Part shown: positions 1,018-60,849 of the stretch, one piece after another
Numbering within the stretch: the first letter of the stretch is position 1
Layout of the letters: the number at the start of each line of letters is the position of its first letter
From: Botryllus schlosseri
Lineage: Eukaryota
Length of the DNA: 64,000 nucleotides
Direction: 5' to 3'
NCBI GenBank assembly: GCA_051294905.1
Contig: CM119372.1
Span: 5,706,001-5,770,000 of the forward strand
Translations under genes and position numbers: made by a program
The notes under the pieces: model-generated
Told to the model about the DNA's origin: nothing
The model's input: the letters and a program-made list of their open reading frames with translations, nothing else
Database searches by the model: none

Positions 1018-1057
1018 ATATCCCCTGACGACGGTCAGCCGAAAATCTTCGGGAATT
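1018..1057 (+). ncRNA. Minimal hammerhead-ribozyme-like motif of the Penelope element
   Basis: tccc-CTGACGA-c-gg-tcag-cc-GAAA-atct-TC-ggga: core boxes, short stem II, stem I tccc/ggga. Confidence 0.5.
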
Positions 1058-1132
1058 AACATGAATATTTTATTCAAATGTGTTATGACATGTGTATAAA
1101 CGACGAATGACAATGTACCGTACATCCGACAG

Positions 1133-1399
1133 ATGACCTTTCTTTTTACGGCGATGCTGATGGTGGATGTAAAATCATCGCTCTTGACAGTGGCGACAAT
1201 GTGCTATGTCGGTCAGCATCGCACCAAAGTGTAACGTGGTGGTATGACGGAACGCCAGTGCCGGAGTATGGCTCAGGGAAACCTGTTGTACAAGCGGATG
1301 ATCGATTATACTTTTACGACTTCGTGACTGTGGATAATTCTGGTGATTACTACTGCAGGTCTCTATCAGAAGCAAAATTATTGCAAGTCTACATTGTAG
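1133..1399 (+). CDS. Gene 1 exon: Ig-like domain
   Basis: acag|AT...GTAG|gtaagt, 267 nt, phase 1-1. Translation has VLC...VTWWYDG...DNSGDYYC, the Ig C-W-(D/N)xGxYxC pattern. Confidence 0.88.
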
Positions 1400-4300
1400 G
1401 TAAGTCTATAGATAGACAATTTACTCATAGTTTCGGCATGCATTATTACATCACGCACAATTCAGCAGGTGCATCAAAAACGACTATAAAATATAATTCA
1501 TGACTATTGTAAACGTCTTGTTGTCCATAAAAACAATTATCAATTAGTTTGTGTTGGTTGATGAAATTAGTGCATTGTATTCCTAAGACCTACGCTCTTA
1601 TAAGCACCATAATTACAGTATCTTCTTGTCAAATAATATTTCTAATAATAATATCACACAGAACAGTGAGATTAATAAAATAAGAGTAGTTGCATATATG
1701 CTTAGTTGCTGACTTTGTACAGCAACTAAGCAAAGTTTAGTCCAAAGATGTATTTTTTCACCTCCATGTATTATTAGTTGGTAATTGTAGTCCAATATCG
1801 AATTTACTTACCAGTCTTATAAACGTTATTACCAATTCTGAATTAGACGATCGGCCTCACAACTACTATATCATATATGTACTGTGCAGCCCGCGGTCCC
1901 ATCTCGTAATTGATATCTGGATTGGACACCCCTTGCTTATCCTGCATCTGAAACACATGCGCACTGCGCAAGCTATATATTATCTCTGATACCATTAGCT
2001 ATAGCCCGTGCAAAACTAAAGAAGACATTGCGATACCGCATATTAACAAGCAAAATGCACTTGTATCGATTTCGTTCAGATATTGTAACAAAACCTGCGT
2101 ATCGTGAAAAAGAAAATAATGTTTATAAGAAATTTCGTACCGTTTCAGGTTTCGTGACGATAGTTTATATTGTAAGTTTTTCATGTGAATTCTGACCTTG
2201 TGTTAAATTGCGAAACGCGAACAAAAGCCGTCGGTTCGCACCATTCCAATAAGAATTGAATTGATTCTGAAACGTTAAGAAATTTCCCACGGTACATTTG
2301 TGGATTGAATAGGCGAGGTACGTTATCACTAGGGCGATTTTTTTTGACCTAAAAAATGGAAGATTTTGACCTAAAAAATCTAAATTTTTACTTTTTTTGA
2401 CCTAAAAAAAACGAAATTTGACCAAATTTTGACCTCACGTATGCAAATTCGATTTTTTTCGCACATAATGCTAAAGTTGTACTACTTATTTTCATTTCTG
2501 GTTGGAACTGTCTGTCCTTTTAAAGTAGATTGGCCTGAAAAAACGTTTTTGACTCAAAAACTGACAAATTTTTACATAAGAATAACTAGTAGTTTAACAA
2601 AATCTGGCCCTATGAAGAATTCCAGTAGTTACAGAAGTAGTATGGTGGAAATAATTCAAATTTTTTGTAGTACAACGAAATATACTCTCCTACATTCTCG
2701 GGTAGAAAGTGTCTGTCCTTACTAAGTAGCTAGTCAGGAATGGAAAATGAACGTTCAACAGCAGCAGTTGTTGGCTGACAATACTGAAGTTGTGTGCACA
2801 CTGCTGGTGACACATCGTGTTGCTTCATTCTGACAAAGTTGTCTATATAACAATTTTTCAGCTTGCGCTCCTTGATATAAGAACATCAATGTCCAAGCAG
2901 TCTTGCTTCAGCTAGGATATTGCGGTACGTTGACCATAAAACCATGTCACTATTTGTTTCATTTGACCGTTTATAATTCACAATGAGCAGACGATGGTGC
3001 CGTTTATAATGGTAGGCCTATAAAGTAGGCTACAAGCTGTAAAATATCAAATGATAAGTTCACCGACAGCGCAAAATCTACGATACAAACGAAATGCAGA
3101 GGTCAAAAAATGTTTGACTTATTAAACAATTTTGACAAATTTTGACCTAACGCTACAATTTTGACCTAATTTTGACTTTTTTTGACATGTCAATAAAAAT
3201 CGCCCTAGTTATCACCATGCTTCTTTTATTCACAGATGTTTCCGTGATTACCCCAGCTGCATTCTGCGCTAGTGATGCCCTTTCAACAATTACTACTTCC
3301 GGCGGCTCTATTGATTCCACTACGGGTATTTATATATTTATATATATCGCAATTTGTTCAATAGACCTATTATATGTGTCTGTATATGCATCGAAGTGTA
3401 ATCCAAGTCAGATGATCAGGTATACGAGTATGTATATATGCAACAGTGACAAAATGCGTGCTACACATTTCGCAAATAGTTAAGTAGCGATGACACAGAG
3501 ACGGAAAAGAATGGAAAAACTAGTAAAATCTTTTACCTGCAGCTCGGTTACGGTGGCCTTTTCTCACAAGTGTAATTTAAACAAATGTAAATAGCCTATA
3601 TATTTCCCAGCGGACATATCAGCAATAGCAATACCAATGGTTACATATCCCAAAACCCCACCGATGAGCGATCATGATAGTCGTTATATGAGAATGGAAA
3701 AGCTCCTTTTTATTCATCTTAAGTTTCAGGATCCCTCCCAATACAACTGGTGGCTGAGAATATATAATCCCAGGGTTTGAATACAGCCTACTTCATAGGC
3801 CATGTGACATTTAATTATTACGGCAATGATTTAAAGACTATAGTACCATAGTGTCCTATATATGGTGTGGACACAGCGAGAGTGAACGGCTATCTGCATT
3901 TGGGTTACGTCATACTTTCCATTTGACCAATTGCAACTTTACGGCCATTTTCGACCGGCTTGCCGAGCGCCAAATTCAATAAAACGGGTATCAATGAAAA
4001 GCTGCTGCTATACTGATTACGAAAATATAAATTTTATTCTGTTCATGGTCCTGGAACCCCCAAAATTGGCCTAGAAATTTGCATTGTGATCTAGTTTTGG
4101 CATTTTGATGCAAAAATTCTGTCTGGCAAATCGAGAATGAAGCTGAGAAGAAAGAGCCAGTCGTCACAATGACAAAACTCGATAACAATGCAAATTCTAG
4201 GCTGCTTTTTTTTTGGGGGGGGGGGGGGTTCCAGGACCATGAACAGAATAAAATTTATATTTTCGCAATCAGTATAGCAGCAGCCTTTTATTGATACCGG

Positions 4301-7300: not shown

Positions 7301-10300
7301 CAAGTCATTAAAGGTTAAGAACCGTGATTTCATTCTCCTAGTCAACACATTAATTTTTATTTTATCGGGAATATCAGACATTGAATCGATATTTCAAAAA
7401 ACGGGGTTTCGAGTTTGAAATGGTGGAGGTTCTGACCCCAAAAAGGCACCCGCTGGCTATACGCCACTGTTAGCAATGATGGCTCTGAGCAAGCATTGGC
7501 TACACAAACATCATTCAACAGAATACCGGCAATTCATTTCACCCAAAACGACGACACGTGTCTTCTAGTTGTTCGGCAACTAATAATTTCTCAAATGTGC
7601 AACTAGAACTAGAACCACTCAATTTACAAAATCCGCAACTAGAACTAGACCTAGAACTACTCAAAAACCGTTAGTTAGTTGAACATCAACTAATTAAGTG
7701 GTTAGTTTGTACAATTCTGTTGTGGAAATGACATTCCTGTAAAGTTGTGATCAATCCACGGCATTGTAGCAAAGTTGAATGGAACAGTTATGGTCGAAGA
7801 AATAACCATATATTATTTAACTTGATGCAAGATAGGCATTATATTCTTTGTGTTCCCACAACCGGTACATGTTTGACATTTTCACGTCATTTGTATAAAT
7901 AAGTGGTACTCGAATACTCATTCTGACTCGAAGCCCACTACTCGATTCAGAATCTAATAACTCCTGTAGCCTATACTCGATATTGTCCGGCCCTGACAAT
8001 GAGTAGGTATTTGATGGCAATGCTATCGGTTGTGTCCGATCTGGACTGCAAATAAGTGGTAATTGGCGGAAATTGTTATGTTCGCGTATTTACGTTGGTA
8101 TCGTTTCACCCTTATTTGTCTAGGATTAGTAATTATCGCCAATCATTATTTCCTCGTGTGTCGGGCTTTGTATTTATACCCTGTGTTCTGTTGTCTACGG
8201 GTCTTTCGTTCCACTGCACTCTGGATCGTGTCGCCTGTCTTAAAGTTATTCAGCTGTACAATATACTGATTGCATATTGCAACCTCGTCGTATGAGTTAT
8301 TGTTCAAACAAAATCAAGAAAATAACAGAAATTATCACTATTCTCACTTTCAGCCACAGATAGTGCTCAGACTGCCACAAAGACATCGAATACTTATAAT
8401 CCTTCCACAATATTCCGTAATTCTGCCGCTTCTACTGCGAGACCAACAGGTATGTTTCACTGTTAATTAGGCTTACCATATGTCCTCTTTTAAGAGGATT
8501 TGTCCTCTTTTTTGAATTTTTTGAAATTGTCCTCTTTTTTGAAAATTTAGGTCCGATTTAGAGCAAATTGCGAGTGATATGCCGTAATTTAGAACAGAAG
8601 TGACGCTCCGCAGGGTATTTCAAAAACGCTATTTTGAGCTCCGAGCGGAAAGACGATTTTTTTTGTAGTCAACCACCTAGCAACGCAGAGAGAAAAACGG
8701 TATTTTGAGCTGTGAGCGGAAAGGTGACCTTTTTTTTAGTCAGCCGGTCACAAAGTGGGAAAAATTCACCGATTTTGAGAATTCTACTCCGGTTTTGCAA
8801 GTCTCAAATTTCTGAAAAAGTGTCCTCTTTTTAGATTTCCAAAATATGGTAAGCCTACTGTTACTACACTAAGAATTTTATTCATAATTAACAGTTACCT
8901 GTATAGTTCACCGATGCATCGTTTACGAAATGCTTTGGCGTATATATGTATGGGGCAAAGCATTTCGTAAACGATGCATTTGGTGAGGGACGTCCATCCA
9001 ATAATTGTGGAAATTATTAAGATTCTCACTTTCAGCCACGGAGAGTTCTGAGACTGCCACAAACGCATCGGATACTTATGATCCTTCCACAACATTCCTT
9101 AGTTCTGCCGCTTCTACTGCGTCACCTACAGGTTTGTTCCTCATAGATCTGCGACTATAATGTGATGTAGGCTAACCTTACAGCATGATTTCGTTAAATC
9201 TGAAATTGCCCTACCTTCTTAGTGCTTAATTGCTTCACCGCCTAAATTGGCACTTTTTATTTAAAGTATACATCAATATGACTTTATAACTCAAATATGA
9301 CCTAACCAGGAAATATGACTAGATCTGACTTTATAACTTTCTTAATATACCCCATAGGGACGTCGTTTTCGCGTTAAAATTGATTTCACGATTTACTGAT
9401 GCATAGAAAAAATATGATTTTAATGACTTTAAATGGCCCTACTTATGATCCTTCCACAACATTCCGTAGTTCTGCCGCTTCTACTGAGACACCCACAGGT
9501 ATGTTCTACTACGACTACGCTATAATTTTATTCATAATTGCTAATTACATATCTAGTTCACCGATAGGTCTTTAACGAAATGTTTTACAACACCCCATAG
9601 ATATATACGCCACTATTTGGTGAGGGGTCTTTATCCAATAAATGGCGGAAATTATTACTATTCTCACTTTCAGCCACAGACAGTGCCGTGACTGCCACAA
9701 AGACATCGAATACTTATAATCCTTCGACAATATTCCGTAATTCTGCCGCTTCTACTGCGAGACCAACAGGTATGTTTCACTGTTACTAGACTAAGAATTT
9801 TATTCATAATCAGCAGTTACCTGTATAGTTCACCGATGCATCGTTTACGAAATGCTTTGCCCCATACATATATACGCCACTATTTGGCGAGGGACGTCAA
9901 TCCAATAAGTTGTGGAAATTATTACGATTCTCACTTTTAGCCACGGAGAGTTCTGAGACTGTCACAAACGCATCAGATACTTATGATCCTTCCACAACAT
10001 TCCTTAGCTCTGCCGCTTCTACTGCGACACCTACAGGTAGGCTATGTTCCACTGAGAGTACATTAAGATTTTTATAATAATTGGTAATTACTAGGGCAAT
10101 TTTTTTTTGACATGTCAAAAAAAGTCAAAATTAGGTCAAAATTGTAGCGTTAGGTCAAAATTTGTCAAAATTGTTTACAAAGTCAAACATTTTTTGACCT
10201 CTGCATTTCGTTTGTATCGTAGATTTTGTGCTGTCGGTGAACTTATCATTTGATATTTTACAGCTTGTAGCCTACTTTATAGGCCTACCGTTGTAAACGG

Positions 10301-13300
10301 ACCATCGTCTGCTCATCGTGAATCATAAATGGTCACATGAAACAAATAGTGACATGGTTTTATGGTCAACGTACCGCAATATCCTAGCTGAAGCAAGACT
10401 GCTTGGACATTGCATGGTTCTTATATCAAGAAGCGCAAGCTGAAAAATTGTGATATAGACAACATTTTCAGAATGAAGCAACACGGTTTGTCACCAGCAG
10501 TGTGCACGTGCACACAACTTGAGTGTTGTGTTGTCAGCCAACAAATTCTGCTGTTGAACGTTCTTTCTCCGTTCTTGGCAAGCTACGTAGTAAGGACAGA
10601 CACTTTCTACCCGAGAATGTAGGAAAGGATCTTTCGTTGTACTACAACAAATTTTAATTATTTCCACCAGAATACGTAATGTAACTACTGGAATTCTTCA
10701 TAGGGCCAGATTTCGTTAAAATACTAGTTTTTCATGTAAAAATCTGTCAGTTTTTGAGCCAAAAACGTTTTTTTCAGGCCAATCTACTTTGTAAGGACAG
10801 ACAGTTCCAACCAGAAATGAAGATAAGTAGTACAATTTTAACATTAAATGCGAAAACACCTAATTTGCATACGTGAGGTCAAAATTTGGTCAAATTTCAG
10901 TTTTTTTAGGTCAAAAAAGGTCAAAATTCAGATTTTTTAGGTCAAAATCTTCAGTTTTTTAGGTCAAAAAAAAAATTGCCCTAGTAATTACCGGTCTAGT
11001 TCACCATTGCATCTTTTACGAAATGTGTTGTCCCATACATATGTAGCCTACGCCACTTTTGGTGAGGGACTTCCATCCCATCAGTTGCGGAAATTAATAT
11101 TATCCTCACTTTCAGCCGCAGATAGTTCTGAGACTGCCACAAAAACATCGAATACTTATGATCCTTCCACAGCATTCCGTAGTTCTGCCGCTTCTACTGA
11201 GACACCCACAGGTATATTCTACTGCGACTACGCTACAATTTTATTCCTAATTGCTAATTACATGTCTAGTTCACCGATAGGTCTTTAACGAATTGTTTTA
11301 CAACACCCCATAAATGTATGTGCCACTATTTGGTGAGTGGTCTCCATCCAATAAATGACGGAAATTATTACTATTCTCACTTTCAGCCATAGACATGAGT
11401 GCCATGACGGCCACAAAAACATCGGATACTAATGATCCTTCCACAACATTCCTTAGTTCTGCCGCTTCTATTGTGACACCTACAGGTATGTTCCACTGAC
11501 AGTACACTAAGATTTTTTATTAATTCGTAATTACCTGTCTAGTTCACCATTGCATCTTTTACGAAATGCGTTGTCCCATACATATATAGCCTACGCCACA
11601 TTTTGGTGAGGGACGTCCGTCCCATAAGTTGCGGAAATTATTTCAATCCTCACTTCAAGCCGCAGATAGTTCTGAGACTGCCAAAAACATCAAATATACT
11701 TATATTCCATCCACAACATTCCGTAGTTCTGCCGCTATACTACGGAGACACCCAAAGGTATGTTTTACTGCGACTACGCTATATTTATAATCATAATTGC
11801 TAATTCCATGTCTAGTTCTCCGATAGGTCTTTAACGAAATGTTTTACAACACTCCATAAATATATGAGCCACTATTTGGTGAGGGGTCTCCATCCAATAA
11901 ATGGCGGAAATTATTACTATTCGCAATTTCAGCCACAGACAGTGCCGTGACTGCCACAAATATTCGAATACTTCTGGTTCTTCCACAACATTCCGTAGTT
12001 TTGCCACTTCTACTCAAGGGCTTGGCCAGAAAAAATGGGGGGGGGGGAGAGGGGGAGGGGGGTGGGGCGAAATTTTTGATGAGTCAAAGGGAGCTACAGA
12101 GCGTTTGTTTTAAGATACCGCCATCTGAGGTGGAAGCCTATGGACAAATATACCTCCCTTTTGAAATCTCCTACTTTCTCTTTAATTTGAGTCGGTTCAC
12201 TAAATTGCATGCTTTATCGCGGCGTGTATGGTGTATCGTAGTAAAAAGAAGATTAAAGATATCGCTCTCTAGAGCAGTGGTTCCCAAACTTTTTCGGTGT
12301 GAGGGCCAAATTTAGAATTTCAGAGTACGGTCGGGGCCGCACGAATTCTGCGGCTATGAAACGGACCCAAACAGTCATCATGGCTATTTCGGAGTAGTTT
12401 TAATGCCCTGGCGAGATTTCCAAACTCTACACTGTTTACGGCTATACTGATCCGTTGCATTGGGTGTCCGTTGAGTGAATCAGCTTTTTGCGCCTAAACG
12501 TGCGAAGCGCGAGAAATTTCTTTAGTTTCATGACTGAATCGGTCAATATGATCGGGAATTGCATGTATTGCTATCAATTTTCATCCAGTTTCTGTTCACA
12601 TAATCTGATTTACCGGTAGAGCTGAGTGAGGTGTGTTTGAAAAGGTACAGGCCCCCTCAATAGTAATTAAACATCTCCGGGGGTATACCCGTTGTCAGGA
12701 ACGTAACAGCACTTTTTCAGGACCCAGGGTTCCCATAGGGTGATAAACTGACCCCATCACGTTGTTCGCTTTTGCCACGAAATTAAAGTTGTACTGTTTA
12801 GCGAGACAGCGCGCGACGTGCGAATATTTCGATAATTCATGATAAAACTGGTGACTAAGATCGGGAATTGCATGGTTGTACTCTCTGCCCACGTAATCAG
12901 ATTTACCGGCAGAGCTGAGTGAGAGGTCTCTTTGAAACCCCGTTAAATTAAACATCTTCGGGCGGGCGGATCCCTAAATGACTCCTTTACATGATGTTAT
13001 TTCGTGACGTCCTCCTGTCTGCTATATCAAAAAATGTAGAATTGCTCAAACCTATTAAACTGAGAGATCACACGATTTCAGATTGGTATTTCTCCACTGG
13101 CATATAATTTTCTTTCGTGCGGGATGGTATTTGTCTTGCTAGGTTCAGATTGCCAAGACAAGAACATTTGGCGCCAGTCATTTAGGCGCGTATATGGACA
13201 ATTAACCCTATAGTATTTTGTATATTATAACAAAGTTTTTGGTCAGCATAAAAACAGTCCTTTACGGCCAAGGCTTTCTCGCTGCCGATCGTTCTGACAC

Positions 13301-16300
13301 ACTTCTTGGAGTCACACGTTGTATGGCCTAAAACTTTATATGTCTTGGTGCGTTGTGGTGCGGTCATGGCCAACGCTGATATGCCCATTTCTATAAATCT
13401 TGCGTATTTTTTCTTGGGGAAGAGTGCCCAATAATCAAAATATGTGGCGAATTGAAATCGCGCATAGCGCGAAAACTGTTTGAAAAAATTGCATAAATTT
13501 TCCAAAAATACTCTATAATTTATGCTAATTCACGAAATAATTTTGGGCCATTTCCGAGCTCGGCCCCCTCAATTGGGGGTTTGGGGTGAGGCAGTTACGG
13601 CCCTGACTATATAGGACTGCCAATTATGCTGCTTTTAGCCGGCTAAGCATGAATCTCGGCGTATTCATCCGTGAGTCACGGGTTGCATATCATCTAGTCA
13701 TCATATACGTCCTCTTTTAAGATGATTTGTCTTCTTTCTTTGATTTTTTTTTTAATGTGTCTTCGGAGGACGCCCAAATGTCTTCTTTTTTGAGGATTTT
13801 CGTCACATATAGGGCCCAATTCGACTGATATACAGCACTGTAGGAACGCTACGGTGGCTATTTCGGGAGATGGACCGGAAAGTTGACCTTTTTTTCAGTC
13901 AACCACCTGTTAGTGTGAAAGAAAAACTGTATTTTCCGGGAGTTGAGCCTTTTTTTTCTCTTTTAGTCAAGTGGGAAAAAATTACCCTGGAAAGTTAGGG
14001 TACATTGCATCGAAACAGCAGTGACGTAACGTTAGCAGTCTATACTCACAAATTTCCTGCAATTCTGTAATCAAAAACCACAGAGGCAAAGCCAAACAAG
14101 AGTATTTTATAAATATAAATTTTATTTTTGTCATAAATCGATTTCTTAATATATTGTGGGGGCCGCAAGAAGGCTATATGGGGGCCGCATGCGGCCCTCG
14201 GGGCCGCACTTGGGAATCACTGCTCTAGAGTATTACGCCATTGAAACAGCCAGCCGCAAGAGGTATCATCGGGCTAAGGTCTGTTTCGCAATATTTAGTT
14301 TTTTTCGGTAAATTTGTTTTTATGACTTCGGGTGAACTCTGATTGCGGTCTCGAAAATGTTGCTACTTGAAAAGATAGTGATCTTTCATCTCAGCAAAAC
14401 ATCAGTGATTGCTTTAGTGTTAATCGTCTCATAATAATCTGGGAAATTCTGACCTGATGCCGGCCAATCACGGCTGAGTGGGCACGACTTTCAATAGTGA
14501 TAACAAAGTGCCTACCCAATGTCCACGACCGTTGGCTAGCTTTCTTGCAACAATAATTTAGTCATTGAAAACAAATCATAAAACAGATGTGAACAAAATT
14601 TGAATGTATTGCCAAAAACTATGAATCAATTATTAAATGATCAGAAAATGACAACATCACGATTACAACTGTATTCGTCGCCTCGCGCCATCCATATTCG
14701 TAACAACTCGATCGATCTTGTCCTCGCTCATCCTTTCGCGATGGCAATGAATCACACATAAATCTGAGAGGCTATCGGAAGTCATTGCTGAGCGTCGCCA
14801 GGTCTTGACCCGCTTGATGTAGGAGAATGACCTTTCAGCCTCCACCGTTGTTGCTTGCAAGGCAAGGATGACCTGGATCGTACTGTGCACGCTTGGATAA
14901 TCCTTAGCATTCAGAAGAAGGTCCAGCAAACTTTTCTGGTTTACTCGGGAAGTCAAAAACGATCTCCGGAGAATTACTTCGTTACCAAGGTTATCCAAAG
15001 AATGCAAACGCTCAATCTCATCTAACTTGACTGGCTTGTTTGAAGGAAGGATGGATAGCAACACAAGTAATGAGGGGTTGTCCCTGAAACGTTCCCGGAG
15101 AGAGTTAGTCAATCCGTCGATGTATGGGACATATACCGAACGCCGGAAATATTGCAAAGCCGATTCAGCACAGACGTTAGCACAGTACACTTGTACCTCA
15201 ACTATTCTAGGCATGCTCAGCTCTTCTACTCCGAGTACTTCACAGGTTTCTTTGTATATCTGCAGCGAAGCTTCCGGGTCGTTGCGGCCATGCTCAAGAA
15301 TTCTCTGTAGAGAATTAAACAAGCTCTTCACGCATGACATGCTGATACCAATAGTTTGAAGCTTGCGTGCTAGTGGTTCCAGGGTTGTAATGACTCGAGT
15401 CATGACTCGACTCGAGTCAGACTCGAGTCACGATTTTCGGATGACTCGACTCGACTCGAGTCATTTTCTCAAAATACGGAAATGACTCGACTCGACTCGA
15501 CTCGAGTCAATCTGTGTATTGACTCGACTTGGACTCGAGTCATTGCGCATGACTCGAAGCAAGTCATTGACTCGAGATTCAGACGGCGAAGACCGAAATT
15601 TCATTGAAATTTCGATGCCAACACGCTATTGGGATTTCGTTTGTTGGTACTGGTGCTTGAAAATGCGACCAGAAACTGCTAAAAGTGAGGGAAATTGATA
15701 TATTATAAATGCGAACCATTCAATATCACCAAATAGAGTTAAAAAGTGGATTTAGGAAGACTTTAACTGGAAACTGAGCAGTCAACACAATGACTTGGAC
15801 TCGGACTCGAGTCATAATACCATGACTCGGACTCGATCCTCTGTTCGCTGACTTGGACTCGGACTTGACTCGGTGGGAATTGAAAATGACTCGACTTGAC
15901 TCGAGTCAAAAATATAAAAGTGAGATTGACTTGTGACTCGGAGCCTTGTAACTTGGTTACAACCCTGAGTGGTTCTATAAGAGCTGAAAATATTTCAATC
16001 AAGTTAACAGCATAAGCGACCTCAGATTTTTCTAAAGCAGTTTTTAAAGAGGAAGCCTTTCCCCTTGTCTCACTGCTTGTTTCACTCGACAAAGAACCAA
16101 GAGCATCCAGCACACGCCGAAAATTAGAATTGAAGGTGCGGATGCTCTTATATTTCTCGAACCACCTGGTCGGGCAGAATAACGGGATGTTAATACCCAA
16201 AATGCAGCGCCTTTTGGGACTATATCTGAAAAAACGGATAGTTTCCCTGATGAAGCCACAGGTGTTTCTGATTACAGGAACTGTACTTTGGTCGTTAATG

Positions 16301-19300
16301 ACTAAGTTCAAACAATGAGAGGCACAGTGTACAAAGATTGCCCGAGGGTGGCGTATCGTGAATAATCCGAAAATGCACAAAACACATTGATTTAGTCGAC
16401 ACCGTTTACTTGATGACTTGAATTTGACTCGTAAGTTTTGTTCCGAGTAACGAGTCAATCCACATTTTTGAAGCGCCGAGTCAAGTCAAGTCAAGTCAAG
16501 TCATACGAAAAAGTTGAATCGAGTCTGACTCGAGTCAAGTCATGTCTCGAGTCATCCCAACACTGCATCAAGCCACACTTTAAGAAACTTGCGGCGATCT
16601 TGCCACGTAGTATCAAGAAGTGGCACGTTTCTCAAAGCATCCGAAGTCAGAAGTCTATATCTCTCTGCATCGCGAAGCTGCGAATGGTGGTCAAGAATAT
16701 ATCCAATATCGTTTGTTTTTCCCACCTCATATGATTTTTGGGGCTCTTGTGTATCGCCAATTATATCTGATGCTTCTACTAGCGAAGGAACACAACTTAC
16801 TATTCCTTCTGTTGGCTGCGCATCTCGACTCCTCGCGGGGAAAAAGCTGTCCAGTCTTGCTTGTTTCGATTTTGACATTGAAACGTAATGCGGAATCCAA
16901 ATCAATTACAATCCTCAAGGCCTCTCTACACGGCAACGAATACTTCACACCTCCTATCTACACGGCAAGCAATTTGCTTCGTGATCTATTGTAAACAAAA
17001 TACCTCGCCACAACAAACCCAGCATTTAAACTGCCCATCAGACAAATGTACTAATATGTGATAACCATCCACTTCAATATGACCTATAGTCATTACGTAG
17101 CATTGCTGTGTGTAGCTCATTGTACAATGTGTGTCTTGAGTGGGTTAAAATAATAGAACCACAAATCATACCGACTATACCCAACAAAGATCCCATCTCT
17201 GAGAGTCTGCGGTCGCGCTCAGCGAACCATAAACATACATAATTAATTAAACTAATGGCATCGCTGTAAAGGTGCGGTGGCATGTGGCCTGTAGAGAGGC
17301 CTTTAATATCGCACCTCGCATTGGTATAGTTATATCAGTAATTACAAATCTGCCTCAGAAAATCTACTTTATATTACTTTATGGAAAATTTGGGAGGGGT
17401 GGGGTGGGGCGATCGCCCCGTTCGCCATTTTCTGGCTACGCCAGTGGTTCTACTGCGACACCAAGAGGTATATGTTCCACTGTGACCACGTTATAATTTT
17501 ATTCGTATTTGTTAGTTACCTGATGGGTCTTTTGCAAAATGTTTTGCAACACCCCATAGTCTACATATATTAGGGTTACCATACGTCCTATTTTAAAAGG
17601 ATTTGTCATCTTTTAAGAGGATTTGTCCTCTTTTTTGACTTTTTTGAAAGTGTCCTCGGAGGACTCCCTTTTGTCCTCTCTTTTAAGAATTTAGGTCAAA
17701 TTTATAGCAAAATGCGACTGATATTCCCTAAATCAGCTTTTTTTCATTATTTTTTTTTAGTGAACCATCTAGCAATGTGGTGAGAAAAACGGTATTTTGG
17801 GCTCTGAGCGGAATATTGACCTTTTTTTGTCAACCGATCACAAAGTGGGAAAAATTCACCGATTTCTTAGGAGAATTCTTCTCCGTTTTTGTAAGTCTCA
17901 AATTTCTGAAAAAGTGCCCTCTTTTTAGATTTCCAAAATTTGGTAACCCTAACATATATATGCCACTATTTAGTGAGGGGTCCCCAATGTCCATCAAATA
18001 AGTGGCGGATATTTTTACTATTCTCACTGATCAGCCATAGATAGTTCTGACTCTGAGGCTGCTACTAAAAAATCGAATACTTATGACTCTTCCTCAACAT
18101 TCTGTAGTTCTGCCGCATCCACTACACCAAGAGGTATGTTCCACTGCTACTACGCTATACTTTTATTCATAATTGCTAATTACATGTTTAGTTCACCGAT
18201 AGGTCTTTAACGAAATGTTTTACAACACCTCATAAATATATACGTCACTATTTGGTGAGGGGTCTCCATCCAATAAATGGCAGAATTTATTACTATTCTC
18301 ACTTTCAGCCACACACAGTCCCGTGACTGCCACAAAAACATCGGATACTTATGATCCTTCCACAACATTTCTTAGTTCTGCCGCTTCTACGGTGACACCT
18401 ACAGGTATGTTCCACTGAGGGTACACTAATAATTTTTTAATAATTGTTAATTACCTGTCTAGTTCACCATTTCATCTTTTACTAAATGCGTTGTCCCATA
18501 CGATAGGTCTTTAACGAAATGATTTACAACACCCCATAAATATATACGCCACTATTTTGTGAGGGGTCTCTATCCAATAAGTGGCGGAAATTATTACTAT
18601 TCTTACTTTTCAGCCACAGATAGGTCTGACTCTGAGGCTGCTTCTAAAACGTCGAATACTTTTGATTCTTCCTCGACGTTGCGTAGTTCTGCCACTTCCA
18701 CTACATCAAGAGGTATGTTCCTGTTCCTGTCTAGTTCACCATTTCATCTTTTACGAAATGCGTTGTCCCATACATATATAGCCTACGCCACTCTTTGGTG
18801 AGGGACGTCCTTTCCATAAGTTGCGGAAATTATTACTATCCTCACTTTCAGCCGCAGATAGTTCTGAGACTGCCACAAAAACATCGGATACTTATGATCC
18901 TTCCACAACATTCCTTAGTTCTGCCGCTTCTACGGTGACACCCACAGGTATGTTCCACTGAGGGTACACTAATATTTTTTTAATAATTGTTAATTACCTG
19001 TCTAGTTCACCATTGCATCTTTTACGAAATGCGTTGTCAGATACATATATAGCCTACGCCAGTCTTTGGTGAGGGACGTCCTTTCCATACGTTGCGGAAA
19101 TTATTACTATTCTCACTTTCAGCCACAGACAGTGCCGTGACTGCCACAAAAACATCGAATACTTATGATCCTTCCACAACATTCCTTAGTTCTGCCGCTT
19201 CTACGGTGACACCCACAGGTATGTTCCACTGAGGGTACACTAATATTTTGTTAATAATTGTTAATTACCTGTCTAGTTCACCATTGCATCTTTTACGAAA

Positions 19301-22300
19301 TACGTTGTCCCATACATATATAGCCTACGCCACTCTTTGGTGAGGGACGTATTTTCCATAAGTTGCGGAAATTATTACTATCCTCACTTTCAGCCGCAGA
19401 TAGTTCTAAGACTGACACAAAAACATCGAATACTTATGATCCTTCCACAGCATTCCGTAGTTCTGCCGCTTCTACTGAGACACCCACAGGTATGTTTTAC
19501 TGCGACTACGCTATAATTTTATTCATAAATGCTAATTACATGTCTAGTTCACCGATAGGTCTTTAACGAAATGATTTACAACACCTCATAAATATATACG
19601 CCACTATTAGGTGAGGGGTCTCCATCCAATAAATGGCGGAATTTATTACTATTCTCACTTTCAGCCACAGACAGCCCCGTGACTGTCACAAAAACATCGG
19701 ATACTTATGATCCTTCCACAGCATTCCGTAGTTTTGCCGCTTCTACTGCGACACCAACAGGTATATGTCCCACTGTGACCCACGTTATAATTTTATTCGT
19801 AATTGTTTGTTACCTGATGTATAGTTCACCGATGGGTCTTTTGCGAAATGTTTTGCAACACCCCATAATGTACACATATATATGTCACTATTTAGTGAGG
19901 GGTCCCCAATGTCCATCAAATAAGTGGCGGAAATTATTACTATTCTCACTTTTCAGCCATAGATAGTTCTGACTCTGAGGCTGCTACTAAAACATCGAAT
20001 ACTTATGATTCTTCCTCAACATTCCGTAGTTCTGCTGCTTCCACTACACCAAGATGTATGTTCCACTGCTACTACGCTATACTTTTATTCATAATTGCTA
20101 ATTACATGTCTAGTTCACCGATAGGTCTTTAACGAAATGATTTACAACACCTCATAAATATATACGCCACTATTAGGTGAGGGGTCTCCATCCAATAAAT
20201 TGCGGAATTTATTACTATTCTCACTTTCAGCCACAGACAGTCCCGTGACTGTCACAAAAACATCGGATACTTATGATCCTTCCACAGCATTCCGTAGTTT
20301 TGCCGCTTCTACTGCGACACCAACAGGTATATGTCCCACTGTGACCCACGTTATAGCTTTATTCGTAATTGTTTGTTACCTGATGTATAGTTCACCGATG
20401 GGTCTTTTGCGAAATGTTTTGCAACACCCCATAATCTACACATATATATGTCACTATTTAGTGAGGGGTCCCCAATGTCCATCAAATAAGTGGCGGAAAT
20501 TATTACTATTCTCACTTTTCAGCCATAGATAGTTCTGACTCTGAGGTTGCTACTAAAACATCGAATACTTATGATTCTTCCGCAACATTCCGTAGTTCTG
20601 CTGCTTCCACTACACCAAGATGTATGTTCCACTGCTACTACGCTATACTTTTATTCATAATTGCTAATTACATGTCTAGTTCACCGATAGGTCTTTAATG
20701 AAATGTTTTACAACACCCCAAAAATGTATACGCCACTATTTGGTGAGGGGACTCCATCCATAAATGACGGAAATTATTACTATTCTCACTTTCAGCCACA
20801 GACAGTCCCGTGACTGCCACAAAAACATCGGATACTTATGATCCTTCCACAACATTCCTTAGTTCTGCCGCTTCTACGGTGACACCCACAGGTATGTTCC
20901 ACTGAGGGTACACTAATATTTTTTTAATAATTGTTAATTACCTGTCTAGTTCACCATTGCATCTTTTACGAAATGCGTTGTCAGATACATATATAGCCTA
21001 CGCCAGTCTTTGGTGAGGGACGTCCTTTCCATACGTTGCGGAAATTATTACTATTCTCACTTTCAGCCACAGACAGTGCCGTGACTGCCACAAAAACATC
21101 GAATACTTATGATCCTTCCACAACATTCCTTAGTTCTGCCGCTTCTACGGTGACACCTACAGGTATGTTCCACTGAGGGTACACTAATATTTTGTTAATA
21201 ATTGTTAATTACCTGTCTAGTTCACCATTGCATCTTTTACGAAATGCGTTGTCCCATACATATATAGCCTACGCCACTCTTTGGTGAGGGACGTCCTTTC
21301 CATAAGTTGCGGAAATTATTACTATCCTCACTTTCAGCCGCAGATAGTTCTAAGACTGACACAAAAACATCGAATACTTATGATCCTTCCACAGCATTCC
21401 GTAGTTCTGCCGCTTCTACTGAGACACCCACAGGTATGTTTTACTGCGACTACGCTATAATTTTATTCATAAATGCTAATTACATGTCTAGTTCACCGAT
21501 AGGTCTTTAACGAAATGATTTACAACACCTCATAAATATATACGCCACTATTAGGTGAGGGGTCTCCATCCAATAAATGGCGGAATTTATTACTATTCTC
21601 ACTTTCAGCCACAGACAGCCCCGTGACTGTCACAAAAACATCGGATACTTATGATCCTTCCACAGCATTCCGTAGTTTTGCCGCTTCTACTGCGACACCA
21701 ACAGGTATATGTCCCACTGTGACCCACGTTATAATTTTATTCGTAATTGTTTGTTACCTGATGTATAGTTCACCGATGGGTCTTTTGCGAAATGTTTTGC
21801 AACACCCCATAATCTACACATATATATGTCACTATTTAGTGAGGGGTCCCCAATGTCCATCAAATAAGTGGCGGAAATTATTACTATTCTCCCTTTTCAG
21901 CCATAGATAGTTCTGACTCTGAGGCTGCTACTAAAACATCGAATACTTATGATTCTTCCTCAACATTCCGTAGTTCTGCTGCTTCCACTACACCAAGATG
22001 TATGTTCCACTGCTACTACGCTATACTTTTATTTATAATTGCTAATTACATGTCTAGTTCACCGATAGGTCTTTAATGAAATGTTTTACAACACCCCAAA
22101 AATGTATACGCCACTATTTGGTGAGGGGACTCCATCCATAAATGACGGAAATTATTACTATTCTCACTTTCAGCCACAGACAGTCCCGTGACTGCCACAA
22201 AAACATCGGATACTTATGATCCTTCCACAACATTCCTTAGTTCTGCCGCTTCTACGGTGACACCCACAGGTATGTTCCACTGAGAGCACACAAAGATTTT

Positions 22301-25300
22301 TTTAATAATTGTTAATTACCTGTCTAGTTCACCATTTCATCTTTTACTAAATGCGTTGTCCCATACGATAGGTCTTTAACGAAATGATTTACAACACCCC
22401 ATAAATATATACGCCACTATTTTGTGAGGGGTCTCTATCCAATAAGTGGCGGAAATTATTACTATTCTTACTTTTCAGCCACAGATAGGTCTGACTCTGA
22501 GGCTGCTTCTAAAACGTCGAATACTTTTGATTCTTCCTCGACGTTCCGTAGTTCTGCCACTTCCACTACATCAAGAGGTATGTTCCACTGTTACTACCCT
22601 ATACCCCAGGGGCGGGCAACTTCTCTAGTCGGCGGGCCGTATATAGGAAAATTAGGTACTTGGCGGGCCTGATTGCTGAATCGATACATTATTCGCCCAT
22701 TTATCCACATATACAAGGAATACATCGTAATGAATGAATATTGCAGCATGCAACACGTTCACACCGCAAACCCATTCCACTCGAAGCCCCTCGACCGGCC
22801 CTCCCCAGGAGCAACCGCTGGCAAATGAGGCCAGCAAGCTCGAAACACATAAATAACTTTTTCATTGTGACGTAATCATGACAAGTACACAGAGTCGCGA
22901 ACGGGAGTAAACAACGCACGGTTACGGTACAACGTACACAAAATCTGCTGTGAAACAGCCGAACGACAAAACAACACTAATAGATGATTCCCAGCGTGCA
23001 GAGACGTTCCTTCTGGCGACAGAAGATCAGCTTTTGCAGCTTTATGATAGTTTATTCAAGGACGTTTAAATGAATAACGAGAACGACCAGTAGCTATGGA
23101 AAACTGATTGGTATTGTAATTTTGCACCCTCTGGGTATTTCAAGAGGTGATGTCCGATGACAGAATTACATGCTGTTACTTGGCCATAATCACGCATGGT
23201 AACTAGGGACTGTGGTGATGGAGAAGTCATGTCATCACCCTGCGAATTCCTAATTTGAGGAGGGACGTGTTGACGAATTCTTTGTTGCAAGCGCTGAGAT
23301 GTGCGACCCACGTACCGACTGTCGCATCGGCACGTGTATTGGTAAATTATGTTACTGTGATCAATCGCAAGTAGTACATCCTTACGCGTTGCTGGTAGTA
23401 AAGATTTAGTAGTAAATATGACACGGGGTTCCACTAGTGGAAAAAATGACTCACGGAGGACTTGATCTGTTTCTCAAACCTGTTACAAGCTGTGCCTATA
23501 CACGCGAGATGCAGATAAACTGGGCACCTTCTCGGTCCAAACGTCAAAACGACAAAATTCCTTCCCACTTCGAACCTGGTCAACCTCACCCACTAGCGGC
23601 CACTCCAGAAGAGGGCCAGTCGAAAAGCCTCGAGCGGAACAAATCTGCAACATGAACGCATTGTTTGCTGCAATATTGAAGTGCGGCACTCCTCCGAAAA
23701 GCCTATTGAAATAATGAATGTATTTTAACGACAGCAATGACACTTCAGAGCCATTTCTCGCCGATAGTGACGAAGACAATGTGGATTTGAGAATAGCATT
23801 GTCATACAGGCGCCGCCATGTCCGCTTTTATCTGATCAATCAACACACGGTGCAATCCTCAATAAAGATTTCAAGGCGTTCGTTAAGCCCGGTACCCCTA
23901 ATTTACCAAGATACCAATTCATTAGGGTAGAGTAGGTGATAAGATAGCGTCGTTGTTTAACTGTGTGGCCATCTCGATATTTGATTCATGCGGCCCGCGT
24001 CCTCTACGAAATTTGAAAAGTGGCCTGCGACCCGTTTTGAGTTGGCGACCCCTGGCATTAGCGGTGTCTTACGAAGGCCTAGAAGTGTGTCGTGCTACAA
24101 GTCGGTGGTTACGGAACCAAAAATAAGAAATACCAGCCTGGTGTAAAAGACCATTGTGGTCGACAAACACCATGATTACCACAAACGACATTAGGGTCGA
24201 GTACATCGTAAATGCCGAAAACGCAAGTCTTCTCGCTTTGACGAACTTACGCGTACATGCTCCACTTTCGCACGTTGCGCGCACACGTATATAATAACAT
24301 ACAGTCACTGACATTTGACGTAGTAAGCAAGTAATGAGGAATATCGGCAGACTGGGTCCGCGGGCCACATTATCATGTAAAACGGAAAACTGTCCGCGGG
24401 CCGGACAAAATCCCTTCGCGGGCCGTATGTTGCCCACCCCTGCTATACCCTTATTCATAATTGCTAATTAGCCTACTTGGGATGGTGCGAAGGGCGAACC
24501 TCTGAAAGGCTCTGGTTCTATAGTTAGGCAATTTAACGGCCATTTTGACCAGCTTGCCGAGCGCTGAATTTGATAAAACGTGTATCAATGGAAAACCGCT
24601 GCTGTACTTATTACGAAAATATAAATTCGATTCCGCTCATCGAACTAGAACCAGAGTGGGGTCAATTACAATAATTCAGTTACATTACAATTACAATTAC
24701 AAATACTGCCTTGTAAGTTCTCAATTACATTACAATTACAATTACTCAATGATAAAAATATCAAATTACTATTACAATTACTGTTGAGCATGTAATTGAG
24801 TCGGTAAAGAGGTGTTCTTTGACAGCCGCAGCGACGTAATAAGCAACAATCTCAAGCTATTCATGTTTCACTCATGATACTTAGGATACCCTTCAATTAA
24901 AAATACTCGAACGTATTCGAACTATTCCAAATCATGAGTACTGAACGCTGCAAACACAGAAAAATTTTTCAAGCGACTGTTAACAACCAAAAGTCTGAGC
25001 GACTAACAGCGGTTAGGTTACAGGACTGTAAATGAAATGTAATCAAACGATAACGCTACTCAGAGCTGAGTGAGGATATAATGAAATGTAATTGGTAATG
25101 GGTCAGCGATAAGAATGATACCGATGAGATGTGTAAAATTAAAATAAATGCAAAAGGAAAGAACCTCCTGATAACTACGAATTACAACATTTTGGTTCGC
25201 ATTTACATTTTCACTTGTTCGGAAACTGTTAGTTTGCATTTGATGAACATCACGGTGCGAAAATTTCCGGCCCCAGTAAATTCGGTCAAGATTGGAGGTA

Positions 25301-34300: not shown

Positions 34301-37300
34301 ACTATTCTTAGAAATTCGAGTCATTACAGCCCAGCCTATTTCGTCAAAGGACCTGTATGTATCCAATCATTGCAATTTCCAATGTCAATCCAATATGACG
34401 TAACATTTGAATATTCGTGTTGTCATTGCTCAGAAGAAGAAAAACACAAGAAAATGAAACAATATAAACATTTTCTAACAAGGGCCTTGTTTTAAACATG
34501 TGTGTTTTTAATTGAATTTTGTTTTAAAGGCAGCTCTACCGAACATGCTATTTTGAATGCTTCGACCGCGTTTATTTCAGACTTTCTTCAAACATGGTGA
34601 TTCTATTTGGCAATTACGTCAGTACGTATTGATTCGCCGCACCTCCTAAATTATATATTATGACATGGAGGCGATTGAAGAGCAACGAATATCCAAGCAG
34701 AACAACTAATTACGTCGCGGGTCGGTTCAAAACAACTGGCTTGTTCGAGTATTTTCTGATCCTAAAAACTCCCAAAGATAAATCGATTGATATAACTTTT
34801 TTAATTTTTTTAGTGATAGAAGGTTTAAAGTCATCAAAACCATAGTGTATACGCTTACATATGTACTGAATTATTTAAACCGTATTATTTTGAAACAGAA
34901 TCATAGGTTATTTCATTGCTATCCAGCACATCAATATCTCATTACAAGTTTCGAATGATTAATTGACATCTGAGCATGGCACACAATGAGAAATGACGGT
35001 TAAGCATTCGTCAATTTAGCATCAGAACGCATGAGCATGATGAGAGCTTGGGGAACATTAGCACGCGACTTCAAAACGTTATTCCTAATCATATTCCTCA
35101 TATTGTCATCATAATAGATCTTCGGTATAATGTAGTCCATGCACTATCCCATTGACGTCCATGTGGACCACAAGAGTATTTTTGTTGTTTTGTTTTTGGT
35201 CTAGAACTAAATAACGTATTTAGACTATTCCCATTCTGAATTCTCCCTGGTCACTATGTGTTCATTTATAAAAAAAAAAGCCTTAAACATTCAAACAAGT
35301 ATTTTACAGAAGATGTTGGATTGCTGTTGGTATTAATTTTATCTGGATGCTGTCATATGTATAATTTACCTTATAGTCATGACTCATGAGCATTTGTCGT
35401 GAGCTAGGCTAAGGATGTGCTCAGGAAAGCTATGAGACATACATGTGTAGTTTAATCTTCAAAATACGCTTCAAACGATGTTCTGGACAACCCGGAGAAT
35501 GATGTGCAGCATCATTTTCCTCTGCTATTCGCATTGGTACCGTGGTGCTCGAATTGCAACGAGCCCGTAATACTAAATTCGAAGAATTAATTCGCATTGT
35601 ATTGCGAATGTTATCAGCAAATTTTCTTCCCTAATGAATGTTTGTAACAGATATCACCTGTCCGGGGAACCCATCCAGCGTCGGTAATAGCGAAATCACA
35701 TCTGGGTGTGATGATGGCAGTCCGTATCAGACAACGTGCGAAATAAACTGCAATGAAGGGTATTATGTGGGAGGAAGTGGAAATGCAGTGTGTGTTGATC
35801 CTACACCAAACAATGACTCTAATGTTCAAGGAGCTTGGGATATCGGATCAACAACTTGCACACGTAGGCTAAGTGTAGACCGCCAAAGCGTAGCAGTTCA
35901 TACAATATATATATACATCTTATTTTGTCCACTTTCGCATATGACCGTTTATTACAGAGATTACGTGTCCTGGGAGCCCAACCAGCATTGATAATAGCGC
36001 AATCACTTATGGGTGTGATGATGGCAGTCCTTATCAGACAACGTGCGAAATAACATGCAATCAAGGCTATTATGTGCGTGGAAGTGGAAATGCAGTGTGT
36101 GTTGATCCTACACCAAACGATGACTCTAATGTTCAAGGAGCTTGGGATATCGGATCAACAACTTGCACACGTAGGCTAAGTGTGGACCGCCAAAGCGTAG
36201 CAGTTCAAACAATATATATAGGCCTATATATACATCTTATATTTTCCACTTTTGCATATGACCGTTTATTACAGAGATTACGTGTCCTGGGAGCCCAACC
36301 AGCATTGATAATAGCGCAATCACTTATGGGTGTGATGATGGCAGTCCTTATCAGACAACGTGCGAAATAACATGCAATGAAGGGTATTATGTGGGAGGAA
36401 GTGGAAACGCAGTGTGTGTTGATTCTACACCAAACGATGACTCTAATGTTCAAGGAGCTTGGGATATCGGATCAACAACTTGCACACGTAGGCTAAGTGT
36501 GGACCGCCAAAGCGTAGCAGTTCATACAATATATATATACATCTCATATTTTCCACTTTTGCATATGACCGTTTATTACAGAAATTACGTGTCCTGGGAG
36601 CCCAACCAGCATCGATAATAGTGCAATCACTTATGGGTGTGATGATGGCAGTCCTTATCAGACAACGTGCGAAATAACATGCAATGAAGGGTATTATGTG
36701 GGAGGAAGTGGAAACGCAGTGTGTGTTGATCCTACACCAAACGATGACTCTAATGTTCAAGGAGCTTGGGATATCGGATCAACAACTTGCACACGTAGGC
36801 TAAGTGTGGACTGCCAAAGCGTAGCAGTTCATACAATATATATCTAGGCCTACATCTTATATTTTCCACTTTTGCATATGACCGTTTATTACAGAAATTA
36901 CGTGTCCTGGGAGCCCAACCAGCATTGATAATAGCGCAATCACTTATGGGTGTGATGATGGCAGTCCTTATCAGACAACGTGCGAAATAACATGCAATCA
37001 AGGCTATTATGTGGGTGGAAGTGGAAATGCAGTGTGTGATGATCCTACACCAAACGATGACTCTAATGACGAAGGAGACTGGGATATCGGATCAACAACT
37101 TGTACGCGTAAGTGAGGACCACCAGAACGTCGTAGTTCGTACAATATATATACATAGGTGGATTTTTTCTCTCTAATTTAGTCATAGTTATACTTTTGAA
37201 ACGGGCGATTATGATTCCAACGAAATCTCACAGTTGACGATTCCCGGCCATAAAGGTATCCGTGGAAATGAAAAAGCCGTAAAAGTCGCACTAAAATCAG

Positions 37301-56375: not shown

Positions 56376-56423
56376 AGCTTCTTGGAGGTACAGAACTTCA
56401 ATATACAGTTGAATAGTATATTC

Positions 56424-60746: not shown

Positions 60747-60849
60747 ATGAAGTCTTTGAATGGAATACTTTTTAGGGCGATAATTGTCGTTTGCTTCAGC
60801 CGTGCTATAAGGGGCGAAGGCAGTTGTAGTCAAGCGGAAGCAGCCAGTG
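60747..60849 (+). CDS. Gene 2 first coding exon: probable signal peptide
   Basis: caccATG context; MKSLNGILFRAIIVVCFSRAIRGEGSCSQAEAAS; donor G|gtaagt in phase 1, matching the next exon. Confidence 0.7.

Follow-up and report, generated by a model that had tools for sequence, protein, structure and literature searches.

A tandem array of exon-plus-intron units, most probably encoding a mucin-like segment, in the ascidian Botryllus schlosseri

A tandem array in which exon and intron are copied together was found in the window, the 64,000-nucleotide stretch of Botryllus schlosseri DNA analysed here. The array itself is real, and most probably its units serve as exons within a mucin-like segment. 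With somewhat better than even confidence, we read the locus as encoding an ascidian type I membrane glycoprotein whose spacer exons were duplicated with their introns, whose intact units are mostly spliced in series and whose length varies mainly by copy number. In the predicted product, one or more Ig-like domains would be followed by a 743-codon Ser/Thr spacer (O-glycosylated, by composition only), by eight Sushi domains and, last, by a transmembrane helix. It is probable that the intact exons are for the most part all included, with the dead units skipped.

Structure and growth of the array

Copies are confined to 8320..22596, as located by blastn with one unit as query. They amount to 26 units or remnants, 23 intact exons and three damaged ones, all on the forward strand; this total, which an earlier note on this DNA had also given, is reached by adding an orphan 3′ half-unit at 9440..9499. 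The intact exons all have AG..GT borders and phase 1-1, and are 96 nt (16 exons) or 99 nt (seven exons) long. None of the 23 has a stop in the spliced frame, which bears out their earlier description as open, while the other two forward frames carry a stop in 15/23 and 23/23. An AG acceptor is present in 25 units, and both splice sites are in place in only 24/26. The earlier claim of a conserved acceptor and donor in every unit is corrected accordingly: unit 7 has an altered acceptor, unit 8 is split and the 9440 remnant is truncated. Length variants had been said to differ by exactly 3 nt, which is correct as a net difference; a single +3 change, however, occurs only in unit 6, and the other six 99-nt units combine +6 with −3.

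The introns within the array (139–209 nt) can be aligned across units, and Tandem Repeats Finder (TRF) gives a period of 271, so the intron has been copied along with its exon. The array is regular only from ~18000 to 22600, and its 5′ third is interrupted by insertions. Because neither the period of 271 nor the length of 14/16 regular introns is a multiple of 3, the array is unreadable without splicing. An unspliced coding VNTR was ruled out on the same period, and coding on the opposite strand was ruled out by stops in 7–23 of the 23 units per reverse frame.

Intact 96-nt exons at 8354..8449 (unit 1) and 9036..9131 (unit 2) precede the orphan half-unit, which retains its donor and has lost its acceptor and 5′ half. 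Units 3 (9674–9769) and 4 (9941–10036), also intact at 96 nt, are followed in the next intron by a 0.9-kb insertion (10082..10991) that is bounded by terminal inverted repeats and flanked by an 8-bp duplication; a 91% copy of the insertion lies at 2322–3217. Units 5 (11116–11211, 96 nt) and 6 (11387–11485, 99 nt) are intact. Unit 7 (11660..11757), a probable pseudoexon, is 98 nt long, with three 2-nt indels and an acceptor altered to TCAAG. Unit 8 has a 1-nt deletion in its 5′ part (11933..12014) and is severed from its 3′ stub (17447..17467, donor kept at 17468) by a 5.4-kb hAT-type insertion on the reverse strand (12015..17446). This insertion carries repeats nested within it, ends in imperfect terminal repeats and is flanked by a target duplication that matches at 7 of 8 bp; it contains a Pfam Dimer_Tnp_hAT match at 14666–15427 (E 1.4e-7, above cut-off). 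Unit 7 has 14 differences from its nearest intact unit and unit 8 has 11, against 0–10 among intact units.

The remaining units are intact. Units 9 to 11 (18035..18712) start at 18035 (99 nt), 18309 (96 nt) and 18614 (99 nt), and units 12 to 16 (18852..20055) at 18852, 19123, 19394, 19665 (96 nt) and 19957 (99 nt). Units 17 (96 nt) and 18 (from 20523, 99 nt), at 20231..20621, duplicate units 15–16 with 98.4% identity. Units 19 to 23 (20796..21999) start at 20796, 21067, 21338, 21609 (96 nt) and 21901 (99 nt), and the array closes with units 24 (96 nt) and 25 (from 22479, 99 nt) at 22174..22577. The intron after unit 25 is interrupted by a further insertion near 22607.

Units 9–11 and 23–25 share 95.6% identity, and units 12–16 and 19–23 share 98.7%. 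The nested block duplications, at 96–99% identity overall, suggest unequal crossover, in agreement with the earlier note as far as the past process is concerned. We infer that one ancestral phase 1-1 exon with its ~175-nt intron was multiplied in this way, single units first and blocks of 2, 3 and 5 later; the pattern is seen directly, the mechanism is our interpretation. Since every copy comes with both of its splice sites and is frame-neutral, the number of copies could drift at little cost. An assembly artefact behind the newest block duplication is one form of an alternative we consider quite improbable, the other form of which concerns the flanking exons (below). Units 12–16 and 19–23 do have a 517-bp exact stretch in common, yet the two blocks differ at 18/1363 columns.

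Constraint on the repeat exons and RNA evidence

Exon status of the units is favoured by splice-site conservation (p about 0.02) together with triplet-only indels. With AG and GT left out and 18/24 rows used, the splice-site columns hold 4 variants in 16 columns against an intron rate of 0.65 per column (Poisson p=0.022). Variants per column number 0.21 at the acceptor, 0.17 at the donor, 0.48 in the exon and 0.57–0.70 in the intron, and mean pairwise divergence is 12.9% for exons and 19.8% for introns (18/24 rows). Each of the three indel events in intact exons is a triplet, whereas introns have 3/21, a count that depends on the alignment; non-triplet exon indels are restricted to the two most diverged units, 7 and 8. 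Stop-free frames are not significant alone because only 0.8–1.2 stops are expected under neutrality, and the open frames are not independent because the copies descend from one ancestor. Selection estimates, built from pairwise and per-column counts, give a pN/pS of 0.61–0.69 (p 0.05–0.11), and third codon positions are about as variable as first and second ones (0.52 vs 0.47). Amino-acid constraint on the repeat is weak.

Part of the array is contained in 20/24 sequencing runs, no run listed as containing it being RNA, and the four others, raw RNA runs, were included by species label. Read mapping covered 1000–20790 in 4 of 24 runs, with units 19–25 and the Sushi exons lying outside that span. 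In run X5, a 446-nt contig aligns on 1130–1397 only, with 178 letters off it, and depth is zero in the intron bin next to the Ig-like exon; together these form a spliced-looking transcript signature for the gene. Mean contig depth over units 10–18 in X5 is 8.7, against 8.8 expected if all exons are included in a transcript of depth 15, contig depth being a poor measure. Counting against serial splicing of the units, raw RNA run X23 reaches a depth of 0–0.15 over units 10–18 in the 6% of it that was read, and an unspliced contig of run X7 runs through the unit 13–14 intron. Summed contig depth in DNA run X1 is 66–131 over the array vs 21 in a unique intron bin, which is no measure of copy number.

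The weak constraint and the sparse reads could also be read as signs of a decaying array or gene, in which former exons, mostly unspliced into productive mRNA, are now spreading as an intronic satellite. We regard this as unlikely. It would fit the 3/26 dead units, the several insertions that interrupt the array, the near-neutral amino-acid change, the near-absence of X23 reads and a transmembrane exon that stops without a tail. It is opposed by the conservation of splice sites (p=0.022), by the fact that every indel in the 23 units is a triplet, with one such indel now carried by six copies, by the spliced-looking Ig-exon contig in X5 and by eight open Sushi exons.

A different possibility, which we take seriously without favouring it, is that cells leave out varying sets of the 23 exons, so that the spacer comes in a ladder of lengths 32–33 residues apart and the Ig domain changes its position with respect to the membrane. 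Every unit-to-unit junction codon is Ala or Ser (529/529), and any exon subset joins in frame, as the earlier note had proposed; this frame symmetry, however, is inherited by duplication of one symmetric exon, so selection for skipping is not needed. Donors vary, with weaker-looking forms in units 16, 18 and 23 (GAT|GTATGT), 5, 15, 17 and 22 (GTATAT) and 2 (GTTTGT), whereas acceptors are near-identical among units. The X5 bins with units 15–18 have depths of 3.4 and 1.5 vs 9.3 and 4.5 expected, a hint only in view of the measure. The 15 joints listed out of 1444 all fall in interspersed repeats, as do the loose ends and most of the pieces in this repeat-swamped mapping; none is a skipping joint or lies at an exon boundary, a point against this possibility and against serial splicing alike. 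Conserved RNA structure able to direct such choices is also absent from the acceptor-side intron segments, with z from −1.05 to +1.18 against shuffles in 11/11 and a compensatory change in 0/11 consensus pairs. An apparent intron hairpin 5′ of the acceptor was rejected on these grounds (z near 0, no covariation).

Precedents for skipping come from Botryllus and from the blood fluke Schistosoma mansoni. The available sections on the B. schlosseri Fester family (FF) genes describe 1–3 extracellular exons being spliced out, with a change in the distance from the Ig and Sushi domains to the membrane (PMC12582321), and those on S. mansoni SmPoMuc report transcripts that carry from 1 to 100 repeats (PMC2576457); the array here is known from DNA sequence. 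A combined form, in which the spacer of an Ig–Sushi receptor is tuned twice, by inherited copy number through unequal crossover and by cell-by-cell skipping among the 23 exons, with dead units shed as pseudoexons, is doubtful in our estimation. If true, it would let the reach from the membrane range from a few to >700 residues, a much enlarged version of the ectodomain splicing of the Fester receptors of Botryllus.

Mutually exclusive use of the kind found in Dscam, with a single repeat exon per transcript, is very improbable. The exons are tandem, near-identical and symmetric, as such a system might have them. Introns of 139–209 nt, however, exceed the steric-exclusion threshold, and symmetric exons offer no frame-based exclusion. 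No docking/selector-type structure was found in the acceptor-side intron segments, where nothing rose above shuffles or covaried. The copies are low in complexity and near-identical, so little would be gained by choosing one.

We return to serial splicing of the intact units, which would yield an extended spacer raising the Ig domain off the membrane. Units without frame or splice sites (7, 8 and the 9440 remnant) would be pseudoexons and skipped. Inclusion of unit 7 brings a stop one codon after it, so this unit must be skipped, and its omission is, by frame, the minimum needed for reaching the membrane anchor. The idea that damaged units can be dropped thus gains from their presence and from unit 7, and the read mapping displayed no skipping joint. 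Spacer length would be fixed mainly by how many units the DNA carries, to which unregulated skipping may add some variation.

Flanking exons and the predicted protein

The array lies in frame between an Ig-like exon on one side and eight Sushi exons and a transmembrane exon on the other, all on the forward strand. The Ig-like exon (1133..1399, 267 nt, phase 1-1, AG/GTAAGT) is open, and the gene start lies upstream of the window. Its Pfam Ig matches fall below cut-off (E 0.005–0.04), and its best ESM Atlas matches are Ig V/I-set at 0.93. A Ser/Thr-rich linker exon with one Cys (3236..3325, 90 nt, phase 1-1, AG/GT, open frame) follows. Sushi exons 1–5 (35651..37107), of 213 nt each and phase 1-1, form a tandem intron-plus-exon array of period 307, with Pfam Sushi above cut-off in 2/2 tested; exon-plus-intron duplication appears to be common in this genome, this array being an example. 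Sushi exons 6–8 (40844..43336) start at 40844 (213 nt), 41145 (216 nt) and 43124 (213 nt), of which exon 7 has lost its first Cys and still scores above the Pfam Sushi cut-off. The transmembrane exon (49353..49465) encodes a hydrophobic stretch, then basic residues, with a stop just past the membrane segment; it has weak Pfam TM-type matches, and the helix is followed by no GT donor.

Phase 1-1 is shared by every module, and the intact exons taken as a chain read through 1467 residues with no internal stop. The repeats are 49% Ser+Thr and 6% Pro, with one Cys in 720 residues. No SEA domain was matched in the 11 segments scanned, and the exons between array and transmembrane exon are Sushi.

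From their strand, phase and order, the Ig, repeat, Sushi and transmembrane exons would belong to one transcript. The other form of the quite improbable alternative raised above places the Ig and repeat exons in one transcript, for example of a secreted Ig-mucin, and the Sushi and transmembrane exons in another. Some 13 kb of repeat-rich DNA does separate unit 25 from Sushi exon 1, and a single 8-bp duplication flanks the Sushi block. The phases nevertheless match throughout, and a scan of 22578–35640 for frame-keeping exons with good splice sites, blind to terminal or signal-peptide exons, gave one doubtful candidate, inside an insertion.

Known systems and nearest relatives

Mucins of chicken and of blood flukes have already revealed this gene design, of which the locus is a further instance. 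The novelty that the earlier note implied was overstated, as one repeat per exon was published for chicken Muc13, in a paper whose available text also notes that the PTS domain of a zebrafish homologue is spread over several exons (Lang, Hansson, Samuelsson 2006, PMC1552070). Its authors propose length variation through both recombination and splicing, and the splicing-tuned length was a hypothesis in that paper. Chicken Muc13 as described there has at least 12 repeats of 20 residues, a SEA domain and a cytoplasmic tail (PMC1552070), whereas the locus here has 23 repeats of 32–33 codons between Ig-like and eight Sushi domains; no homology is implied. In SmPoMuc, according to the sections available, an exon with flanking introns is the tandem unit, under concerted evolution and in up to ~20 copies per gene (PMC2576457). 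That unit, however, holds a 27-nt exon in ~1 kb and is microsatellite-separated, a signal peptide directly precedes the repeats and the genes form a multigene family (PMC2576457), against a 96/99-nt exon in a ~271-nt unit here.

Among amphibians, available excerpts describe a multi-exonic mucin domain in Xenopus tropicalis Otogl/MucXS (PMC5789918), call X. laevis FIM-C.1 highly polymorphic via alternative splicing and, in a cited title, give FIM-B.1 a short consensus (Sushi) repeat (PMC7177656). As far as these excerpts go, the Xenopus mucins are secreted and gel-forming with vWD or trefoil domains, none of which is seen here. Joba and Hoffmann in 1996 reportedly dealt with splicing of the FIM-B.1 repeat units.

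No tunicate precedent for such a gene was found in the literature search, by title or abstract start among the matches listed, and the available part of PMC4948705 added nothing on exon structure. The locus offers a clean, gap-free case in a third lineage, where 23 live units stand beside three dead ones and the block duplications are dated. As RNA data for the species are public, combinatorial skipping and the death of exons within an array could conveniently be studied here.

Compared by description, the Botryllus FF/FcoR proteins and the product predicted here are both ascidian Ig plus Sushi membrane proteins. The available sections describe one Sushi domain and no mucin array for FF/FcoR, and Tyr-motif tails for FcoR (PMC12582321), whereas in the gene here a Ser/Thr array of 23 exons precedes eight Sushi domains on their N-terminal side, and a stop comes right after the transmembrane helix. 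Instead of the three Ig-like and one Sushi domains of FcoR, the window holds one Ig exon, the Ser/Thr array and eight Sushi exons, and a cytoplasmic ITIM or hemITAM is lacking, as the stop ends the transmembrane exon with no GT donor. No FF or FcoR name occurs among the 10 matches looked up.

A word-index protein search gave no database protein with the repeat or Ig exon (0 scored of 182 and 90 candidates, weak evidence) and none with a Sushi exon (0 scored of 27 candidates). The nearest relatives, by HMMER with a Sushi alignment, are predicted proteins of Styela clava: XP_039258803.1 (E 0), XP_039266283.1 (E 9.5e-80) and XP_077966642.1 (E 1.8e-43), the last two labelled ‘E-selectin-like’, the names being automatic. 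None of these matches lies outside the Sushi region of the window, and the parts of the proteins examined have no long repeat spacer or Ig domain. They share with the Sushi exons here a long acidic loop before the conserved Trp, and XP_077966642.1 has a short Thr-rich stretch ahead of its Sushi repeats.

The repeat array and its damaged units

The array is real and largely as the earlier note described it: copies of one Ser/Thr-rich, mucin-like unit of intron plus exon are confined to 8320–22596 (blastn of the window). The total of 26 units stands if an orphan 3′ half-unit without an acceptor (9440–9499) is counted, but the conserved acceptor and donor ascribed to each does not; an AG acceptor starts 25 units and both sites are in place in only 24. 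As claimed, 23 units have an open frame, with AG..GT boundaries, phase 1-1 and no stop in the spliced frame, and these intact exons measure 96 nt (n = 16) or 99 nt (n = 7). The net length difference is indeed 3 nt, but a plain +3 occurs only in unit 6, and six units carry +6 and −3.

Unit 7 (11660–11757; 98 nt) has three 2-nt indels and a TCAAG acceptor. Unit 8 starts at 11933, bears a 1-nt deletion in its 5′ part, and is interrupted by a 5.4-kb insertion (12015–17446), beyond which the end of the unit and its donor resume (17447–17469). The insertion encodes a hAT dimerisation domain, its terminal repeats are imperfect, and the duplication flanking it matches at 7 of 8 bp. Units 7 and 8 diverge most from their nearest neighbours, with 14 and 11 differences (0–10 for intact units). 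With three dead units, the locus is handy for testing. A perfect hairpin at 8938–8979, from a ~35-nt local inverted duplication in the intron preceding unit 2, is absent from other units. More insertions with inverted ends lie in array introns (8470–8860, 17570–17952 and 22607–24450); past the last of these the unit-25 intron picks up briefly at ~24451 and is interrupted again, so the array may formerly have extended further.

With a period of 271, and 14 of 16 regular introns not multiples of three, the array is unreadable without splicing. Variants were counted in 18 of 24 aligned units, leaving out units 1, 2, 4, 11 and 25 (broken or divergent flanks) and unit 7 (damaged), and came to 0.17 per column at the donor, 0.21 at the acceptor, 0.48 in the exon and 0.57–0.70 in the intron; the splice-site deficit has p = 0.022 with AG and GT excluded. 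Intact exons show three indel events, each of which preserves the frame, compared with 3/21 in introns. Protein-level constraint is weak (pN/pS 0.61–0.69, p 0.05–0.11), and the absence of nonsense changes from the 23 intact units is to be set against only ~1 expected under neutrality. Such weak constraint fits, without proving, a segment under selection for composition and frame; decay of the array or of the gene appears improbable.

The gene around the array

An Ig-like exon (1133–1399; weak Pfam Ig matches, Atlas matches of 0.93 to Ig clusters), a 90-nt linker exon (3236–3325), eight Sushi exons (35651–43336; Pfam cut-off passed by 3/3 tested) and a transmembrane exon with a terminal stop (49353–49465) share the strand and phase of the array. 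Joined, the intact exons encode 1467 residues with no internal stops, and separate transcripts or a misassembly are a very unlikely account of the arrangement. The repeats total 743 codons (Ser+Thr 49%, Pro 6%, one Cys in 720 residues), and this segment separates the Sushi rod from the Ig domain and does not adjoin the membrane. When the Sushi alignment was searched with HMMER against 1.84 billion representatives, Styela clava proteins ranked first, second and fourth (10 of 150 matches identified), which makes an ascidian source probable, and no match extended to the rest of the window outside the Sushi region. No example of this arrangement of Ig, multi-exon mucin, eight Sushi and transmembrane parts turned up in the databases searched.

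Sushi exon 7 lacks its first Cys, and the block holding all eight exons (31625–46428) has the same 8-bp sequence on both sides, outside inverted transposon-like ends. At 49455–49470 the transmembrane exon shows AG then ATAAAA instead of a possible GT donor and continues into the stop. An exon-like 45-nt stretch (56343–56387) has good splice sites, fits the phase of that exon and encodes a basic juxtamembrane peptide; given this stretch, we speculate that the protein may have lost its cytoplasmic tail. The next gene begins on the same strand (60747–64000) with a signal-peptide-like exon and continues to the window end, where an exon is truncated. Its phase 1 exon at ~62341–62666 has two Cys and gave no match in a Pfam scan; judged from its exons, this gene possibly encodes a related surface protein.

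Splicing and spacer length

Any subset of repeat exons joins in frame, as the earlier note held, since Ala or Ser stands at 529/529 unit-to-unit junction codons. Across all modules, stops arise in 21 of 1122 ordered pairs, a count that matches the pairing of the three T-ending units with Sushi exons 2–8. Unit 7, if included, gives a stop one codon downstream, so that a full-length protein needs at least a jump over units 7 and 8.

Four of 24 public sequencing runs were mapped on 1000–20790 (units 1–18), and their tables are dominated by interspersed repeats of the introns; none of the 15 joints listed, out of 1444 for the four runs over this interval, falls at an exon boundary. In the raw RNA run X23, of which 6% was read, depth is 0–0.15 across units 10–18, and the candidate gene is barely expressed in this run. 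In run X5, whose library type is unrecorded, a 446-nt contig covers 1130–1397 alone, which is the Ig exon within 3 nt, and depth is zero in the following intron bin; the contig looks like a spliced transcript. A contig of run X7 connects units 13 and 14 through the unspliced intron between them, and with other intronic pieces this indicates that X7 includes DNA or pre-mRNA. Mean X5 array depth (8.7, with units 15–18 low) gives only a hint of full exon inclusion, for which a depth-15 transcript would give 8.8; X5 contains 37% of array words where wholly exonic words are 25%, so background multiplied by copy number could account for part of this depth.

No steering RNA structure for skipping or exclusion was found in 11 intron segments, which fold like their own shuffles, and 0/11 consensus pairs covary. 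This argues against regulated skipping among the repeat exons, which the in-frame junctions would permit and which we regard as rather unlikely, and against their mutual exclusion, which we scarcely credit. The likeliest reading, and a somewhat probable one, is that the intact exons would be spliced in series and the dead units skipped, with spacer length governed mainly by DNA copy number.

Published parallels and growth of the array

The STP exons of CD46 and the PEVK exons of titin are analogues. In chicken Muc13 each repeat has an exon of its own, with length control by splicing as well as recombination proposed by its describers (PMC1552070), and Schistosoma mansoni SmPoMuc repeats exon 2 with its flanking introns, giving 1–100 repeats per transcript (PMC2576457). 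The design (both papers) and the hypothesis of splicing-tuned length (the former) had thus already been published for other animals, and the novelty was overstated. The mucin domain of Xenopus Otogl is multi-exonic (PMC5789918), FIM-C.1 polymorphism arises through splicing (PMC7177656) and extracellular exons of Botryllus FF genes are spliced out in 26/38 (PMC12582321). By analogy, the gene would work like these designs. Unlike Muc13 it has no SEA domain, and it is therefore not a Muc13; its domain count and tail differ from those of Botryllus FcoR, so it is not an FcoR either. No tunicate precedent was found in the literature searched, which omits most subscription papers.

Units 12–16 and 19–23 share 98.7% identity across 1363 columns, units 15–16 and 17–18 98.4%, and units 9–11 and 23–25 95.6%; several exon pairs are identical in sequence. 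Unequal crossover usually leaves nested block duplications of this kind. Sushi exons 1–5 (35651–37107) likewise make up a tandem array of intron plus exon, with a period of 307 and 92% matches, and such duplication is thus not peculiar to the mucin part. At 18480–18540 and 22345–22405, within the introns that precede units 11 and 25 (209 nt each), two intron types seem to be combined, together with 34 nt of additional sequence that could be a crossover scar.
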